Part shown: positions 10,791 to 48,870 of the stretch, piece by piece
Numbering within the stretch: position 1 is the stretch's first letter
Layout: the number at the start of each line of letters is the position of its first letter
Position numbers and translations under genes: made by a program
Sequence record: NC_070992.1
Length of the DNA stretch: 64,000 nucleotides
Reading direction: 5' to 3' (one strand)
Source of the DNA: Escherichia phage Paul
Notes under the pieces: generated by a model
Told to the model about the DNA's origin: nothing
Database searches by the model: none
What the model saw: only the letters and a program-made list of their open reading frames with translations

Positions 10791-13700
10791 ATGATCGTTT
10801 ATAATAACCAAGCACCTGATGCAGTGAATAACGTTGGGCAGTTTGGTGCTACAGAAGGCTCTATCGGAGCTTACAAGCAGGCAGCAGAATATGCAGCTGA
10901 TTCTAAATATTGGGCATTACTAGCTGAGTCTAAGTTTGGTACAATCGATGATCTGATCGCTGAAGTAGAACGTCTGTACCAACAGGGCGCTCTTTTGCAA
11001 CAAGACATTGAAGAGTTGAAGCAAGATTTTAAAGATCAAGATGCTCGATTAATGCAACTCATTGCTCAGACCAACGCAGCAGTAGCTGACGCTCAAAACG
11101 CTCTAGCGCTAATGGACCAGAAGCTTATTGAGGTTCAAGAACGTCTCGACATCTTGCTTGGGATGTCTGTTGATGTTACTACCCTTCCTCCGGGAAATGA
11201 GGCTTCAGGACATTTCGACCCTAATACCGGCGTGATCTCACTAGGGATTCCTCAAGGACTCCCCGGAAAAGATGGGTCTGTTAAAGATTTAGACTCAGCG
11301 CCTGTAGGAACTCCAGAGCTTGGAGATTTGGGTTTCTATGTTGATAAAGATGATAATACAGTACATAAAACATCTTTGGAAAACATTGCTAGTCTTATAC
11401 CTTCTGTTCGAGATATAAGTTTGAATGGTGGGGCACCTCAGTCTGGTAATGTTTCTTTAATCATTGATAAGAACACCGTAGGACTTCCTAACGTAGAAAA
11501 CGTTGCCTCCTACAGTAAAACTGTATCTGATAATAAATTAGGCGGGTTTGTAAAAACTTACGAGAGTAAGGCTCTAGCAGAGGCTGATATCCCAAACCGT
11601 CAAATCGGAGAAACCGTATTAGTTTGGAACAATACATCGTATGTTTTCTATGAGGTAGCCCCTGATTTATCTCTTTCTCTCAAAAAGGAAGAACCTAGGA
11701 TAGTAACCGTTAACTCTCGCATTCCGGACTCCACTGGTAATATTGACATAACAATTCCTACAGGAAACCCATCCCTCTATTTGGGTGAGATGGTCATGTT
11801 TCCTTATGACCCAAACCTTCCAGTATCCTATCCTGGTATTCTTCCTGCTGATGGTAGAGTTGTATCTAAAGCAGCAGCTGGGGATTTGGGTCCGTCTCTG
11901 ATAAGCGGACAACTTCCTGTTGTTTCTGAGAGTCAGTGGCAAAACGGGTCAAGACAATATTTCTCCTGGGGTACCTTAGAAGACGGCTCTGATGCCGACT
12001 CTACTAACTATAGAGAGATACGACTTCCGGATTGGACAGGAGGTGAGGCTATTAGATCTCCAGATGTGAGCAAAGATTCTTCTTACAGCGGAGCACCTTT
12101 ATCACAAGTTCCTTATATTGTTTCAGTGAATAACATAACTCCTGATGATTCCACTGGTAACATCTCCATCACAAGATCTTCTTTGGGTGCGGCGAAGTCT
12201 GGAGACAATTCTGACATTACGTCCTTGTCGGGACTAACAACCCCAATCTCGATTGCACAAGGTGGTCTAGGTGTTACAACTCAAGAAGAGGCGTGGAATG
12301 TTGTCCGTCCTGCTGGACCAACAACGTTATCTACCGCTGCTGTGGGTGAGATGGATGCAGTAACTAAAGGGTATGTTGATCTTATCAAGTCAGATGTAGA
12401 TTACCTGAAGTCACTACCTTCACTTATAGACATATCTAAAGTAGATGGTGTAAGGAACAGTGATATGTTGAATAGCTTTTTCTCTTCAATCAAGGGAGGT
12501 ACAGCAAAAGTCTTCTCAAGTGTTCCGTTAACCTTTACTATAGATAAAACTACAACTCTGTACGGGAATTTTGACTTAAGTAACTGCACATTCAACCTAA
12601 CTGGTGGTCGGGTTATTTATGCAGATGAACGAGACCCAGATTCTTGTTTAAAAGTAATAACTTTATCAGGGTACCCACTACAAGAGTCTAGCAAAGTGTT
12701 AACAACCAATGACTCCCTTCAAGGGTGGGATAATTCCTTAGTTAAGATAACATCTACAGAGATTGACCTATATCGTTATCTCAATGGAGTATCAACCCCT
12801 AAAACTAAAGGTGAAGTTAACTTCTTAACTAAGAATAAAGAGTTAATGTATTCTCTCAAAAATACGTACAACGATCCTGTGTCCTGCACCCTCTACAAAA
12901 TACCTTTAACTAGAAACCAGATCTCCTTACCTAAGATAGAAGGTTCGATTAATATCTTTGCTTTTGATATCAGAAGATCTTTGGTTGATGTTAATATTAT
13001 TATGGATAGCAGCATAGGGCAAACATCTGTAGATTCTACTGTGTTTGGAAGTGGTTTTACTTTCGGGGTTGTTTGGAAAGTTATTGGTTCGGGGATCACT
13101 CAAACTGACACCAACTCTAGATACTCTGTCACCACTGAATTTGCCCTTAAGCATCTATTCACATCTTCTCTTGTAGGCAAGGGATGGAGATCGGTAGATG
13201 GGAATTATAGTAGAGATATGACTTTTAGGGACAGCACTTTTGATTCAATTCAAATGCACTACGGCTGCTCTTCTATCTTAATCTCTGGATGTGAGGTTCC
13301 TTCTGTCATCTTCGGTACTGGAGCCTTTGGAGAAACCACTCAGGTGATTAATTCTGATATCAGTACGTTTGGTATTAGAACGGATTACGGAGAGCACAAG
13401 GGAGATTTTTATGTTACTGGCGGCTCTATAAGAATTCCTAGTACGTCATCTGGGATTGTTGATCTATTCGTCTGTAGAAGCGACAATATCAACTCGTCTG
13501 GTGAACCCTTACAGCCGAGACCTCTCCACCTTCCGAAAAACGTCAAAATCAGCAGTAACATCTATTGGCCTGATTCTGTAACCTTGAACCTTGTTAGTCT
13601 GAAAAACAACTTCAAAACTACAGACACCAATAAGTTTATTACTCCTAGCTTAATAGATTTTTCTGGAAGTACATTTAATGGTAAGCTAGCTAGGTTTGAG

Positions 13701-34727: not shown

Positions 34728-36213
<1,486 letters not shown>

Positions 36214-36726: not shown

Positions 36727-36748
36727 AAGCCACCCGGAGGTGGCTAAG
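36727..36748 (-). terminator. intrinsic terminator after SSB gene
   Basis: minus-strand AGCCACC-TCCG-GGTGGCT hairpin followed by TTTTTTCG. Confidence 0.55.
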
Positions 36749-36766: not shown

Positions 36767-37513
36767 TTAGAATGGGCTATCGTTGTCGTCTTCATAAGTA
36801 GAAGCAGGCTCTTTATCAATCGTAGGGATTGAAGGAGTAGCTTCTTTCTGTTCTGTTTCAGAAGCACGAGTAATTTCACGACCAGCCAGAGGCATGTTCT
36901 TAGCGTCATTAGCTTGAGTAAGCAGGTTGCGCTGGAACGGGAACATTAGTTGATAGGATGCTACGTTCTCATCAGTTTCAGCATACGGTTCGAAGAATAC
37001 CAGAGGACTACGAGCTTCACCAACTGCTGCACGATATTTGGTTGGGATTGGAGAAATGGTTTTGATGGAGTTTTTAACTTCACCAGCTTTGTTAGTGTAA
37101 GAGTTAACCAGAATGTTAACAGGCTGGCCTAACAGAACATCCTTGAACCAAGACAGATCACCTTTCAGTGCTTGAATGCTTGGGTCAATCATCTTGCAAA
37201 GATCAAGAATACCAGAGTTCTTAGCTCGTGGGTTTACATCATAGCTCTTGAACTGGCAAGCCGGACGTGGTTCTAATGCCTTACCATCGGAATCTTTACC
37301 AGTAGCATCAACACCAATCAGCTCGAAAGCCAAATCCATACGGAAAGCCGGATTCTTAGGAGTTACTGCTTTGGTCTTCGGGTCAATCCAAGGGTCACGA
37401 TTGTGAACACCCAAACCTACTACACGAACGATACGTGCTTCGTATTCACCATCAGGGATTACATCGTAGTTGGATTTACGGGAAGCAGTTGCGATAGTTG
37501 GAATCATAGACAT
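36767..37513 (-). CDS. putative ssDNA-binding protein (T7 gp2.5-like)
   Basis: acidic C-terminal tail ending YEDDNDSPF; strong SD AAGGAAA; biased codon usage; own promoter and terminator. Confidence 0.5.
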   Translation of the reverse strand: MSMIPTIATASRKSNYDVIPDGEYEARIVRVVGLGVHNRDPWIDPKTKAVTPKNPAFRMDLAFELIGVDATGKDSDGKALEPRPACQFKSYDVNPRAKNSGILDLCKMIDPSIQALKGDLSWFKDVLLGQPVNILVNSYTNKAGEVKNSIKTISPIPTKYRAAVGEARSPLVFFEPYAETDENVASYQLMFPFQRNLLTQANDAKNMPLAGREITRASETEQKEATPSIPTIDKEPASTYEDDNDSPF

Positions 37514-37572
37514 ATTGTAATTTCCTTATTTAATTTGAAAGATTGTTGCTCTCTTTGAGCGGTTATGTATAG

Positions 37573-37581
37573 TATACATTA
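37573..37581 (-). promoter_or_regulatory. TAATGTATA motif, candidate phage-sigma promoter element
   Basis: exact 9-mer on minus strand 60 nt upstream of the SSB ATG; part of the 15-bp palindrome ATGTATAGTATACAT. Confidence 0.45.
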
Positions 37582-37847
37582 CGCTTATACCGATAAGAGT
37601 ACTATATAATATAAGTATCTTTGGTAGTAGATATAACACACCAGTAATGTATATATTGTATAGCTGATAAAGTTATTGCAGGCTTGTATATTGGGCAATT
37701 CACAGAACCCCTTGCAAGTACCGAAGGGCAGGAGCCACCTGCGAGATAAAAATAGAGAATTAAGGAATCCTTGATTTAGGTTGAGGACTCCTAGGACTTT
37801 GATTCTCTATTAAAATCAAAAGAAAACTTAACTTAAAACAATAACTT

Positions 37848-38486
37848 CTACCATTCTAAAAGACCTTTAAAACTAGTTTGTTCTACTGTTCTCTGAAAAG
37901 GTAAGTTAGTTCTAGCTTGAGATTCTAATTGAATCTTCTTTCGGATTTCCTCCAATTGCTCTCTACTTTTATCCCCCACTGGAAACAATATAGTTTCTAA
38001 TACGCTTTTTCTCTCAGCGAACTCCTTACGAATTTCTTGCAGAGACACAGCTTTGTAATCAATTTGTTCCATTGAAGTACAAAAGTATCTCCAATCTTTT
38101 ATAGTAGAATTATGAGTATGAGCATAGATATTATACCTTCCTCTCATTTCATCAGAGTGAATAGGAATATGAGTTACCCAAAATTCTTTGTACTTATAAT
38201 CACCACTGATGTGTCTAAAGACTTTCATCATATCAGGGAGAAGTTCTAATCTGTCATGGTTTCCTAAGACAAGATGTTTCTCTCCTTTTACTTCAGCGAT
38301 GATATCAAGAGCATACTTTTCAAACACCCAATCACCGGTAAAGAAGATTTTATCACGCTTAGTTACATGATCAAATGCAGCTAGGATTGCTTTGTCGTGT
38401 TCTTCGATGGTTTTAAATTGCTTACGAAAACTACAGATGTTGCGATGACCTAAGTGACCATCTCCTGCAAAATAAACTTCAGCCAT
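37848..38486 (-). CDS. calcineurin-like metallophosphoesterase
   Basis: GDGHLGH, GDWV, GNHD and HTH metallophosphatase motifs in order. Confidence 0.7.
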   Translation of the reverse strand: MAEVYFAGDGHLGHRNICSFRKQFKTIEEHDKAILAAFDHVTKRDKIFFTGDWVFEKYALDIIAEVKGEKHLVLGNHDRLELLPDMMKVFRHISGDYKYKEFWVTHIPIHSDEMRGRYNIYAHTHNSTIKDWRYFCTSMEQIDYKAVSLQEIRKEFAERKSVLETILFPVGDKSREQLEEIRKKIQLESQARTNLPFQRTVEQTSFKGLLEW

Positions 38487-40400: not shown

Positions 40401-42245
40401 TTAATGTGTGTGCATCCAGTTAAGCCCAATCTGACAATCAGATGCCAGAGGACATTCCATGTTCAAGTACTCACCAGCCTTCTTAACACAAAGCTCGGTG
40501 TGCTCTTTAAGTTTCTGTACATCATTACGGTTCACTGAGAATTGACCTTCATCATGCATATCAATTACCTTAGCACAACGAACCCCATCCTTCTCAATCC
40601 ACTTGTTAAGGAACATCATAGCATATTTCATAACAACAGCACCGGCACATTGCAGGAGTGTGTTAAGGGCTTTATGAACCATAACTTTACCAGTGGCATC
40701 TCGTCTCATTGTAATCTTACGACCATCAACGCCAATCAAGTATCCCTGAGCAGCCTTTTCTGTCATACGATCAATGAGGATTGCAATACATGGGTTCTCT
40801 GCTAAGAAACGTGCTCGCATCACTGAACCTTCGTCAGCCCCACCACCTACAATTGAACCAAGCTTAGCATCACCAGCACCATAGTTGAATGCATAGATAA
40901 ACGTTTTAGCGTTGTCACGAGTAGGAAGACCAGCAAGTTTCTGGTTGTGAGAGTGAATATCACCTTCAAGGAGGATATCACGATACATAATAGCAGAAGC
41001 TAAACCACGTTCTGCCAGAGCTTTCTTAGCTGGATTATTCTCTTCTATTGCTTCAGCAAGCATGTCCCTACACTCTTTAATGAGGTAGTGTGCAAGCATA
41101 CGCAATTCTAATCCAGAACCATCATACCCCAAGAATACCTCTTTACCAGCGGGTATGTAATATTTGTAAGCACCTACAGGCTTGTCTTTCTTCCCCGGCT
41201 TACCTTTCTCATAAATTACGTTAGTACCTTTTCGTATATAACAACCATCAGGAACAACGTTAGTAATAATGAAAGGACGAGAGTGATCATCATCTGAGTT
41301 ATAGTCAGACTCAAACAGACCGCGACACTCATGACCAAACAAACCACGGGAGGGAATATTAACCACGATACGATGTTTGAATCGAAAAGTCGGCGTAGCG
41401 CAGCTGTTAGCTTCTGCCGAAAGTTTACCATCTTCGCGCTCCTTTGCTATAAGTCCACTAATAAGACCTAGCCTGTGAGCCGCTACAACGCGTCTCTTAA
41501 GCAAACTTCCGACACTCCCTAGCTCACCCCCTAACCCTTCTTCAAGAGTCTCCTCGAGGTTTGTAGGAGCTGTAGGCCACTTGTTTGAGGTAGCTAGTGC
41601 TATCTTAATCTCATCAAAAGTGATAGGTCTACGTCGGTTAGGATTTAAACCTAAACCAAATACATAAGCCTTCATGTAGTTCTTAGTTTTAAACCGAAAA
41701 TGCTTCTCTAAGAACTTTCTAATATCAGCGTCAACCATCTCGGCTGTCTGCTTCTGTTTAGCATTACCTCGCATCCAAGCTGAATACCATGCTTGGTATG
41801 TTCCATACTTCCGCATATCTTTCTTGATTTCAAAAGTATTCCAAGGTTTCTTTGATACGTTAAACTCTGGAGGAAGAAAACCCTCATCCATAAGGGCTTC
41901 TTTAACTCGGGCATCTTTCGATGGGTCAAAGTCTACGTACTCAACACAGGTGAATGCTCCACCAATGTCTTCTCTCTTAAGTCCAACTCTATCACAATAG
42001 GCTTGAGGCCATTTCTGTAAAGCTCCAGACTTCTTAAACGGCTTCATGTAAGTAGAGCCATCTAGTCTCATCTTAGGTAAGAGAGGAATTAATTCTTTGT
42101 CAATATTAACAATAATCTCTTTAAGGAGGTGAACATACCACCGAGCATTTCTTCGGTTGAAACTCACTCCGTGCTTTGCTTGCTTAGAGATTATATCAGC
42201 GACAGTCATCTCTGTCAAAAATGGAAGAGCGTCCGGGTTGCTCAC
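40401..42245 (-). CDS. DNA polymerase, family A polymerase domain only
   Basis: motif A GYDGSGLELR, motif B RDNAKTFIYAFNYGAG, motif C IDMHDE; no 3'-5' exonuclease domain in this ORF. Confidence 0.85.
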   Translation of the reverse strand: MSNPDALPFLTEMTVADIISKQAKHGVSFNRRNARWYVHLLKEIIVNIDKELIPLLPKMRLDGSTYMKPFKKSGALQKWPQAYCDRVGLKREDIGGAFTCVEYVDFDPSKDARVKEALMDEGFLPPEFNVSKKPWNTFEIKKDMRKYGTYQAWYSAWMRGNAKQKQTAEMVDADIRKFLEKHFRFKTKNYMKAYVFGLGLNPNRRRPITFDEIKIALATSNKWPTAPTNLEETLEEGLGGELGSVGSLLKRRVVAAHRLGLISGLIAKEREDGKLSAEANSCATPTFRFKHRIVVNIPSRGLFGHECRGLFESDYNSDDDHSRPFIITNVVPDGCYIRKGTNVIYEKGKPGKKDKPVGAYKYYIPAGKEVFLGYDGSGLELRMLAHYLIKECRDMLAEAIEENNPAKKALAERGLASAIMYRDILLEGDIHSHNQKLAGLPTRDNAKTFIYAFNYGAGDAKLGSIVGGGADEGSVMRARFLAENPCIAILIDRMTEKAAQGYLIGVDGRKITMRRDATGKVMVHKALNTLLQCAGAVVMKYAMMFLNKWIEKDGVRCAKVIDMHDEGQFSVNRNDVQKLKEHTELCVKKAGEYLNMECPLASDCQIGLNWMHTH

Positions 42246-44077: not shown

Positions 44078-44195
44078 TCATGCAGGTGTCTTCATTGAAC
44101 TCTTCACACTCAAAACATGCTCGTTCGATATTTTTGTAGAAGTCGATGGTTGATGAACCATCACCACAATCTCGGATAACTAAAGCGACTTTCAT
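44010..44195 (-). CDS. hypothetical Cys-containing protein (61 aa)
   Basis: start overlaps PhoH stop (coupling). Confidence 0.3.
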   Translation of the reverse strand: MKVALVIRDCGDGSSTIDFYKNIERACFECEEFNEDTCMNDGEPTIIDVPEGFVPPGGWSE

Positions 44196-44923
44196 TTATC
44201 TTGTTCCTTTTCCATAGCTTTAACAATAGCTTTACAGAAACCAGAACGAACAATGTCATCCGATTCGCCGTCTACAATCTCAGCGAACTCATACAGATCA
44301 TGTTCATCAATAAAGTTAGTAGCCCAAGTAAGACCGCTCTCACGACCACGCATATCATGCTGGTTAGTATCACCCATACAGAACAGCTGAGAGGTTTCTC
44401 CCAATCGAGTCATGATTGAGAAGGCTTCATCTTTAGTGGTGTTCTGGAACTCATCAACGATAACGATAGCATCATTGAAAGAACGACCACGGAGATACTC
44501 CAGAGGTACGAACTCAATGTTACTGTTACCGAGCTGGCATTCATAGAACCCCTTACCATATCGCTGAGTAATAACATCAATGATAGGCATCAGGTAAGGT
44601 TCAAACTTCTCGCGCATCCCTCCCGGAAGTAACCCAAGAGAATTACCCATGCCGACCGAAGGGCGACTCAGGATGATCTTCTGAATCTTACCACTCTTTA
44701 GTGCATCAATAACCGTGGAAGTGATTACAAAGGTCTTACCACAGCCCGCAGGAGCGTCTGTGAACACAACTTGTTTAGTCTTGATAGCATTTAGTAGTTC
44801 AGACTGAAACTGGTTCTGAGGTACTACAGGCTTCGCTAAAACCACTTCTTCAAACTCTCGCTTACCTTTACGAGTGACAAGTGCTTCCCGACGAAGATCT
44901 TTCCGTGATTGACGACGACTCAT
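44192..44923 (-). CDS. phoH: PhoH-like ATPase
   Basis: Walker A GCGKTFV and overall PhoH-like pattern. Confidence 0.8.
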   Translation of the reverse strand: MSRRQSRKDLRREALVTRKGKREFEEVVLAKPVVPQNQFQSELLNAIKTKQVVFTDAPAGCGKTFVITSTVIDALKSGKIQKIILSRPSVGMGNSLGLLPGGMREKFEPYLMPIIDVITQRYGKGFYECQLGNSNIEFVPLEYLRGRSFNDAIVIVDEFQNTTKDEAFSIMTRLGETSQLFCMGDTNQHDMRGRESGLTWATNFIDEHDLYEFAEIVDGESDDIVRSGFCKAIVKAMEKEQDK

Positions 44924-48798: not shown

Positions 48799-48870
48799 AA
48801 CTCTCTCCTGTAAAATACAAATTCTTATTGTACTCTATATACATTTGAGAGTTACCATATCTACTACCAA

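Follow-up and report, generated by a model that had tools for sequence, protein, structure and literature searches.

The 334-bp gap upstream of gene 40 is best read as a pair of back-to-back promoters for the phage sigma factor gp36, one of which would make a new structured non-coding RNA ending at a two-way terminator hairpin; we give this reading a probability of about 0.55. The leftward promoter, P40, was already known. The new half of the arrangement consists of an unlisted rightward promoter, referred to here as P_anti, and a lineage-specific structured RNA, both predicted from sequence.

The stretch under analysis (64,000 nucleotides, called the window below) is from a phiEco32-like phage (Kuravirus, Gordonclarkvirinae). 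Approximately 1.9 kb around the gap matched 97 phage records at 80–99% identity, and the gap itself was conserved in 97 of 97. These records are phiEco32-like podoviruses of E. coli or Shigella and belong to Gordonclarkvirinae (Kuravirus, Suseptimavirus, Nieuwekanaalvirus). phiEco32 serves as the model for a phage that replaces the host sigma factor with its own (gp36 together with gp79), and the BASEL paper states that the molecular biology of this group "has been only poorly studied". By a rough ORF cover of the window, the gap is the largest segment without a minus-strand ORF in the minus-strand module, in agreement with a preliminary description of this DNA, which had called it the longest non-coding stretch there. 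Its GC content ranges from about 28 to 46% in 100-nt windows, as compared with about 42% for the whole window. The features listed in the preliminary description were all present, with coordinates off by one base at most. It had not recognised the repeated motif as the gp36 promoter consensus, and it had passed over the GC-richer segment 37678–37750, which proved to be the most conserved part of the gap and to behave like a plus-strand RNA gene. The gap and its surroundings contain the following features.

35107–35754, minus strand: sigma factor gp36 orthologue, downstream of gene 40
Downstream of gene 40, minus strand, as the gp36 orthologue: Macro-domain gene
36767–37513, minus strand: orthologue of phiEco32 gene 40 (SSB-like), downstream border of the gap
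37527 to 37522 and 37513 to 37511, minus strand: Shine-Dalgarno AAGGAA in the gene 40 leader, and ATG
37514–37566, minus strand: predicted gene 40 mRNA leader, 53 nt, start placed by the P68 register, conserved in relatives
37560 to 37548, minus strand: leader hairpin GCUC-AAAGA-GAGC, which folds in the window, followed by AACAAUC at 37547 to 37541
37565–37579: palindrome ATGTATA-G-TATACAT, overlapping the P40 −10 element and start site
37581 to 37573, minus strand: −10-type element TAATGTATA of P40, a known gp36-dependent middle promoter; predicted +1 at 37566
37582–37620: variable AT-rich inter-promoter spacer including the P40 −35 region, the least conserved segment
37621–37633, plus strand: P_anti −35 element TTGGTAGTAGATA, the exact 13-mer of the P68 −35
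37645–37653, plus strand: P_anti −10-type element TAATGTATA; predicted +1 at 37660
37660–37676, plus strand: P1 hairpin AUAGCU-GAUAA-AGUUAU, 5′ end of the predicted RNA
37677–37680, plus strand: UGCA junction, invariant in 30/30 distinct homologues
37681–37722, plus strand: exchangeable arm, here version A; five versions (A, B, C, C′, D) of 33–68 nt
37723–37750, plus strand: core, GAAGGG, then hairpin GCAGG-AGCCA-CCUGC (37728–37742), then A-rich linker GAGAUAAA (37743–37750)
37751–37811, both strands: long hairpin, 61 nt, likely 3′ end of the plus-strand RNA
37848–38486, minus strand: calcineurin-type phosphoesterase gene, 212 aa, upstream border of the gap
40401–42245: family A DNA polymerase, upstream of the gap

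The sequence tAATGTAtA has been published as the consensus for promoters used by E. coli RNA polymerase with the phage sigma factor gp36. For phiEco32, six gp36 promoters were reported as experimentally detected, upstream of genes 6, 13, 26, 40, 58, and 68, and the SU10 supplement contains the entry aagcgtaatgtatactatacataaccgctcaaagagagcaa, placed between CDS37 and CDS38. The minus strand of the gap is identical to this SU10 string over 41 nt, and the same gene lies downstream. Because of this identity, and because the gene 40 promoter of phiEco32 is among the six, the minus-strand TAATGTATA is identified by its sequence as the orthologue of the known P40; neither the motif nor the 41-nt stretch nor the gene served differs from phiEco32/SU10 P40. 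The divergent promoters suggested in the preliminary description are thus borne out on the minus strand, where P40 matches both the SU10 string and an experimentally detected phiEco32 promoter. As expected for its class, P40 is found upstream of a middle/late gene and in the orientation of that gene. Its −10 element was conserved in all relatives; its −35 region shares only the A at −34 with P68. A transcription start 6–8 nt downstream of the motif, as well as activity with the gp36 holoenzyme, was reported for the phiEco32 P40 orthologue. Applying the P68 register (AATGTA at −14 to −9) places the P40 start at about 37566 and predicts the 53-nt leader listed above. The leader stem was formed by other sequences in relatives down to 59% gp40 identity (GUUCA/UGAAC, GUCC/GGAC, UACUCA/UGAGUA, GUCCU/AGGAC, and UGUCCA/UGGACA), and the ACAAU-like tail 3′ of the hairpin was mostly retained. 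In myPSH1131-type phages, the inter-promoter spacer accommodates an insertion of about 150 bp.

Two exact copies of TAATGTATA had been noted in opposite orientations, and both were recovered (plus strand, 37645–37653; minus strand, 37573–37581); the inverted pair is actually 10 nt long (GTAATGTATA). The 64-kb window contains five copies of TAATGTATA versus 0.74 expected, and 0/100 shuffles reached five. The remaining three copies lie at the expected places of the phiEco32/SU10 promoters P13, P26, and P58. The composite TGGTAGT-N16-18-AATGWAT occurs twice in the window, as compared with an expectation of 0.00. The "15-bp perfect palindrome" ATGTATAGTATACAT of the preliminary description was present at 37565–37579, but as a 7+1+7 arrangement around a central G, which is not fully self-complementary. 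Relatives kept the palindrome with a variable centre (1–3 nt). The earlier interpretation as a whole is supported in part, for the divergent promoters. The inverted repeat ATAGAGAAT/ATTCTCTAT, also noted earlier, was found at 37752–37760 and 37802–37810. It extends to 13-nt arms (37751–37763 and 37799–37811), which are 92% complementary.

On the plus strand, the predicted P_anti has the full P68-type −35/−10 architecture, which supports the second of the divergent promoters. Within the window, TTGGTAGTAGATA occurs only at 37621–37633 and at 48858–48870 on the minus strand, in the P68 −35 region, and the gap from TTGGTAGTAGATA to AATGTA is 12 nt at both P_anti and P68. In the cryo-EM structure of the P68 open complex, AATGTA occupies −14 to −9 (PMC12276001). 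The C-terminal domain of gp36 contacts −37G and the −34 base pair, and mutation of the contacts abolished activity (PMC12276001). The G and A of P_anti fall exactly at −37 and −34 in this register. Compared with the phiEco32 middle promoter P68, which the gp36 holoenzyme uses with gp79 as activator (PMC12276001), P_anti shares the 13-nt −35 element TTGGTAGTAGATA, the 12-nt gap, and the −10 element AATGTATA, and the contacted bases (−37 G, −34 A, and AATG at −14 to −11) are all matched. Unlike P68, P_anti opposes the flow of the gene module and has no downstream ORF; it faces away from all nearby genes and thereby departs from the gene orientation typical of the class. A further difference is seen in a second clade (clade 2), which has AATGAA.

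The conservation of P_anti was followed in 30 distinct homologous sequences collected from GenBank phages, IMG/VR, metagenomes, and Logan assemblies. TGGTAGT and AATG(T/A)ATA were invariant in all 30, and the sequence of the intervening spacer varied freely. A working promoter would be expected to show just this combination of invariant −35 and −10 elements and a freely changing spacer. The spacer to the −10 element had a constant length of 12 nt among Gordonclarkvirinae; clade 2, with TAATGAATA in place of the consensus, has a spacer of 11 nt, that is, 1 nt shorter. Two homologues (L050 and L040) keep a P_anti-type promoter despite a different downstream sequence. P_anti can thus be put forward as a well-supported prediction of a second gp36 promoter in the gap. 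It is apparently uncatalogued: the published gp36 promoter lists, the original mapping paper aside, name only six promoters, and the element at 37645–37653 is not one of them.

Downstream of P_anti, the plus strand is predicted to encode a conserved, folded non-coding RNA of about 150 nt, which is specific to this lineage. The predicted +1 (37660) coincides with the first base of P1 in both clades, even though their P1 sequences are unrelated. Among eight distinct versions of P1, 5/5 outer pairs were kept, and three positions displayed three pair types each. The commonest P1 type has a G-U pair, whose minus-strand counterpart would be an A-C mismatch; the folding energy of P1 in the window was −3.0 kcal/mol on the plus strand versus 0 on the minus strand. 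When the P1 sequences were aligned with MAFFT, 98.5% of the cells paired, and the covariation score was reached by 0/500 shuffles. Clade 2, in which the gene 40 protein is about 71% identical, has P1 wholly replaced by ACAUC-AAAY-GAUGU. This replacement hairpin again starts at the predicted +1 and ends just 5′ of UGCA.

The exchangeable arm showed a similar behaviour. Its first two or three bases pair with its last two or three in 15/15 distinct arms (GG/CC, CGG/CCG, CG/CG, UG/CA, and UGA/UCA), a post-hoc result, as the pairing was noticed first and tested afterwards. The inner stem of version B changes from CUG/CAG to CCG/CGG in ECBP2 and to CCUG/CAGG in L044, and 5/8 pairs of the arm stem covary in a model-fitted alignment. 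The version-B arm was found at no other locus and in 12 records only, its ICP1 matches being due to chance. A covariance model built from 15 version-A sequences detected exactly one copy in each phage; the rest of the window had no other, and more distant relatives lacked it. The alignment made with this model had 98.1% of its cells paired and ten pairs changed on both sides, a number reached by 2/500 shuffles; because the alignment was fitted to the tested structure, these figures are biased in its favour, unlike the MAFFT-based and register-based counts for P1 and the arm ends. Pairs are thus kept by compensatory changes in P1 and in the arm stem, whereas the invariant core and long hairpin are uninformative in this respect.

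The strongest conservation was found in the 3′ half of the RNA (the core and the hairpin, about 90 nt), which is 96–100% identical where gene 40 DNA is 81–83% identical. At this gene 40 divergence, 27–28 of the 28 core bases are unchanged, and the core is near-identical even in clade 2. The core hairpin folds at −7.9 kcal/mol on either strand. As the core never varies, it gives no covariation information on structure, and a DNA site would be equally possible. The long hairpin is identical at 60–61 of its 61 bases across genera; its folding energy was −23.5 kcal/mol (z −3.6) on the plus strand and −19.0 kcal/mol (z −4.1) on the minus strand. One pair of its upper stem was seen as U-A, U-G, and C-G, and this position pairs only on the plus strand. 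The conserved block starts with the −35 element and ends with the 3′ arm of the long hairpin; the coding DNA on its flanks is less conserved, and past this arm the phages diverge into unrelated sequence types. The limits therefore suggest a promoter-to-terminator footprint on the plus strand. With regard to termination on this strand, the long hairpin is followed by only 2–4 U, and its stem is AU-rich with a large interior; a simple terminator scan called it on neither strand.

No ORF with a ribosome-binding site was found in the gap, and the 26-nt differences in arm length would break reading frames. The RNA region is therefore considered non-coding. The phages 7-11, GAP52, Privateer, and LAh_8, as well as several relatives at 59–69%, have short or unrelated upstream regions, which indicates that the element is limited to Gordonclarkvirinae and one neighbouring clade.

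The long hairpin also has a likely role on the minus strand, where it is followed by UUUUUAUCU (a U5 run). It is located directly 3′ of the stop codon of the upstream gene, whether this is the 212-aa phosphoesterase, as here, the 35-aa ORF of phiEco32, or the gene for the 178-aa protein of L036. Because of this constant adjacency, the hairpin is probably the site at which transcripts of the upstream operon are terminated or processed. Its invariance would be easier to understand if both strands made use of it. For the whole region, the minimum free energy was lower on the plus strand in 27/27 sequences, but the z-scores were equal (−2.4 plus, −2.3 minus), so the folding energy does not pick the strand. 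The plus strand is favoured by the promoter, the G-U pairs, and the roughly 90 conserved nucleotides located downstream of the minus-strand terminator.

These observations bear on two alternatives. The block could serve the minus strand only, where the upstream operon would end in it with a terminator or RNase III site, together with a stabilising 3′ structure or a spacer before P40; P_anti would then be inactive or incidental. The U5 run directly beyond the hairpin, the stop-codon adjacency, the folding of the minus strand (z −4.1 for the hairpin, −2.3 overall), and the lack of a plus-strand member among the six published promoters all agree with this. We nevertheless regard it as unlikely, given that about 90 nt past the terminator (37750 to 37660) would be untranscribed if termination works and yet are conserved and covarying, that the G-U pairs fail and P1 does not fold on this strand, and that every lineage has the −35/−10 pair with a variable spacer, for which the chance expectation is 0.00 per window. 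The other alternative takes the complete invariance of the 90 bp, in place of covariation, as the mark of a DNA operator, at which P40, P_anti, or read-through would be controlled through the binding of a phage or host protein to the palindromes AAGGAATCCTT and AGGACTCCT. Two similar short palindromes about two helical turns apart and a CCTAGG site within the long inverted repeat would suit such a function. The insertions of 1–3 nt between phage groups, however, alter the half-site spacing and keep the RNA pairing, and RNA hairpins account for the conserved palindromes as well. The position would be unusual as well (90–150 bp downstream of P_anti and about 190–240 bp upstream of the P40 start), and no candidate binding protein is known. 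An operator is accordingly the explanation to which we attach very little probability.

Two further proposals accept transcription from P_anti and assign another purpose to it. The gap could be a transcription-activated replication origin, in which divergent gp36 transcripts open the DNA or prime the phage polymerase, and the plus-strand RNA folds into a stable RNA-DNA hybrid comparable to ColE1 RNA II and the T7/T4 origin transcripts. Known phage origins are built on phage promoters: the primary origin of T7 combines the phi1.1A/B promoters with an AT-rich region, and ori(uvsY) and ori(34) of T4 combine a middle promoter with an unwinding element. As in T7 and T4, phage-specific promoters here adjoin AT-rich DNA within a replication gene cluster. 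The two face away from each other at a distance of about 80 bp, the AT-rich spacer between them tolerates insertions, and the SSB-like gene adjoins them, with the DNA polymerase (40401–42245) in the same replication module. The RNA holds a G-rich run (GAAGGGCAGGAG), and in L050 the promoter pair is kept, but the place of the RNA core is taken by very AT-rich DNA of about 200 bp. Unlike in T7 and T4, however, the promoter precedes a predicted RNA that is conserved and folded; the promoters and AT-rich flanks are present, but the transcribed part is GC-richer. An origin needs neither a covarying 5′ hairpin nor an arm with paired ends, and distant relatives with the same replication genes have only 55–100 bp at this position. 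There is also no GC-skew switch at the gap: the skew, which in this window follows gene orientation and transcription direction, has its only turn near 31–32 kb, where the late and middle modules meet. An origin function seems improbable to us on this balance, and at the same time these phages have at present no better candidate for their replication origin. More speculatively than the preferred reading, though as a conjecture worth keeping in mind, the plus-strand RNA may be more than an antisense by-product, namely a dedicated functional RNA of Gordonclarkvirinae, whose invariant 90-nt core would bind a conserved partner; it would act either as an origin primer or R-loop or as a decoy capturing a protein of the host, RNA-binding or defensive, to which the exchangeable arm would be adapted according to the host.

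According to the preferred reading, that of back-to-back gp36 promoters with a structured RNA, P40 would start the mRNA of gene 40 with its 53-nt leader and conserved hairpin. With the assistance of gp79, the gp36 holoenzyme would use P_anti in the middle and late stages. The resulting RNA of about 150 nt, starting at 37660, would consist of P1, UGCA, the exchangeable arm, the invariant core, and the 61-nt hairpin. The latter would act as a two-way terminator, providing the 3′ end of the RNA and the end or processing site of the upstream operon. Since the two starts are 94 bp apart and face away from each other, the RNA does not overlap with the gene 40 mRNA. Its complementarity to the 3′ untranslated end of the upstream operon, as well as to read-through into gene 40, is complete. 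We infer from this complementarity that antisense pairing combined with head-on transcription is the simplest mechanism. The RNA would pair with the 3′ untranslated end of the operon and with read-through transcripts, and its transcription would collide with the polymerases producing them. Gene 40 would thereby be insulated and expressed from P40 alone. An antisense role leaves the invariant 90-nt core and the exchangeable arm unexplained, which suggests that the core may have an additional, sequence-specific partner.

A formal parallel is the OOP RNA of lambda, an antisense RNA of about 77 nt that has its own promoter, adjoins the replication origin, and was at one time suggested to be a primer. 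Like it, the predicted RNA would be a short non-coding transcript running from promoter to terminator in a replication region, directed against the neighbouring operon and complementary to its 3′ end. There is no sequence or structure similarity between the two, and OOP overlaps a coding 3′ end. Unlike OOP, the RNA described here is about 150 nt long, wholly intergenic, predicted to depend on the phage sigma factor, and equipped with an exchangeable arm. The gp36 promoter set has so far been taken as six promoters, all for protein genes. If the present reading is true, a seventh promoter of the strongest (P68) type, facing in the opposite direction, and an RNA product would be added to the gp36 regulon, and an easily testable template would be available for gp36/gp79 biochemistry. 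The block would then be the only strongly conserved non-coding element in a phage group that is used for therapy and is newly tractable on E. coli K-12. If the conjecture of a dedicated functional RNA is true, gp36 would for the first time be found to control an RNA gene, and the RNA would constitute a new class among phage RNAs.

Database searches yielded no known relative of the RNA. Rfam 15 gave no match at the gathering threshold in the window (best sub-threshold score of 18.7 bits versus 41.2), and the permissive matches for the window and a version-B relative (6A, mir-303, tp2, CRISPR-DR47, CopA, and DUF2815) were dismissed as noise. The DUF2815 RNA motif (RF03084), which is found upstream of phage SSB-like genes, matched weakly over the gene 40 leader, on the correct strand, in two phages. 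Membership was rejected at 14.8 bits versus a gathering threshold of 41.2, as only the AU-rich Shine-Dalgarno part aligned and the hairpin was missing. ARAGORN detected no tRNA or tmRNA in the window. No similarity of the RNA to E. coli genomes was found even at E ≤ 10, and an exact-pattern scan of 185,579 bacterial and archaeal genomes returned no match. To our knowledge, the RNA does not match 6S-like RNA either, and the combination of the core hairpin and AUAAA bears what we take to be a loose likeness only to the type I-E CRISPR repeat, the hairpin loop varying between AGCCA and AGACA. A CsrA sponge was considered on account of four AGGA motifs; according to the prediction these lie in paired stretches, and most relatives have AGGGA at two of them. 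Two possible trans targets, a 14-nt complement of the variable P1 at 12656–12669 (E 0.03) and a 15/16 match to the arm loop at 44539–44554, inside a 243-aa ORF (E 0.45), were taken as chance; the RNA parts involved are not conserved. Literature searches on these phages, the primary promoter-mapping paper aside, turned up no report of an antisense or small RNA.

The preliminary description had named the downstream gene an SSB gene. Searches of Pfam, PHROGs, and PDB sequences gave no function for the gene 40 protein. An AlphaFold model built from 32 homologues had a pLDDT of 81 and a beta-rich core. Its best PDB fold matches were all OB-fold proteins (SSB, PriB, or RPA), although weak (E from 6e-3, TM ≤ 0.25). 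The label is plausible, and a few GenBank records name the protein ssDNA-binding protein. A disordered linker leads to an acidic end, ...EDDNDSPF, in which P and F are invariant in the family; this tail resembles the tip of E. coli SSB.

The mRNA leader of gene 40, the SSB-like gene, contains a conserved hairpin, and the gene is closely followed by a terminator. The two features are as follows:

37541-37560, minus strand: hairpin in the gene 40 mRNA leader, with an ACAAU(C/U)-like tail
36728-36745, minus strand: canonical intrinsic terminator (AGCCACC-TCCG-GGTGGCT, then TTTTTT), about 20 nt past the gene 40 stop codon

The tail follows the hairpin and lies about 25 nt upstream of the Shine-Dalgarno sequence. 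A corresponding hairpin was found upstream of the gene 40 homologues in ten related phage records or contigs (L036, L038-L041, L044, and L047-L050). Its stem is wholly different among lineages, being formed by GCUC/GAGC, GUUCA/UGAAC, GUCC/GGAC, UACUCA/UGAGUA, GUCCU/AGGAC, or UGUCCA/UGGACA. The hairpin is also retained in relatives that do not carry the plus-strand RNA predicted to start at the putative divergent promoter P_anti. For gene 40, this element could serve as a translational operator or as a stabilizer of the 5' end.

With a terminator at this position, gene 40 may be transcribed on its own, as a unit that extends from P40, its phage sigma (gp36) promoter, to 36728-36745. Several relatives have an HNH homing endonuclease gene directly 3' of gene 40 (1569-1982 in L001; also L038, L044, and L049); the window lacks this gene. 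The gene 40 protein (36767-37513, minus strand) ends in ...STYEDDNDSPF, preceded by a low-confidence linker. This tail is reminiscent of the acidic tip of bacterial SSB, and its last two residues, Pro and Phe, are invariant in 32 homologues.

Phages of the myPSH1131 / EcM-vB1 type have about 150 bp inserted between P40 and P_anti (about 1270-1420 in L012; 686-829 in L035); one record annotates the insert as a 47-aa ORF. These phages carry the version-B arm of the plus-strand RNA and a slightly altered -35 element (ATGGTAGTATAT). The Logan contigs L040 (1-203) and L046 (1-207) stop within the equivalent intergenic region, with some 200 bp of sequence left upstream of the gene 40 homologue. In L040, what comes after a P_anti-like promoter (TTGGAAGTAG...AATGAAATA) is not the RNA core but a short hairpin with a U-run behind it.

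Upstream of this region, the window was compared with the related records L001, L003, L005, and L006:

37848-38486: phosphoesterase gene, a single 212-aa ORF

The phosphoesterase is likewise one 212-aa ORF in XT32 and Bas87. Many relatives have the equivalent stretch annotated as a 167-aa phosphoesterase plus 54-aa and 35-aa ORFs, and phiEco32 itself has no phosphoesterase. The C-terminal 38 residues of the window protein match a separate PHROG family.

Within a 243-aa minus-strand ORF (44192-44923), the complement of the coding strand matches the variable-arm loop of the plus-strand RNA at 15 of 16 positions (44539-44554). This match (E 0.45) was judged to be due to chance, since the arm loop is not conserved.

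One further promoter was located, the orthologue of the phiEco32 gp36 middle promoter P68, whose type of -35 element P_anti shares:

48839-48870, minus strand: P68 orthologue

Judged by eye from the alignment, the start site of its predicted transcript appears to coincide with a small hairpin (UACAA...UUGUA), which parallels the 5' hairpin predicted for the P_anti transcript.
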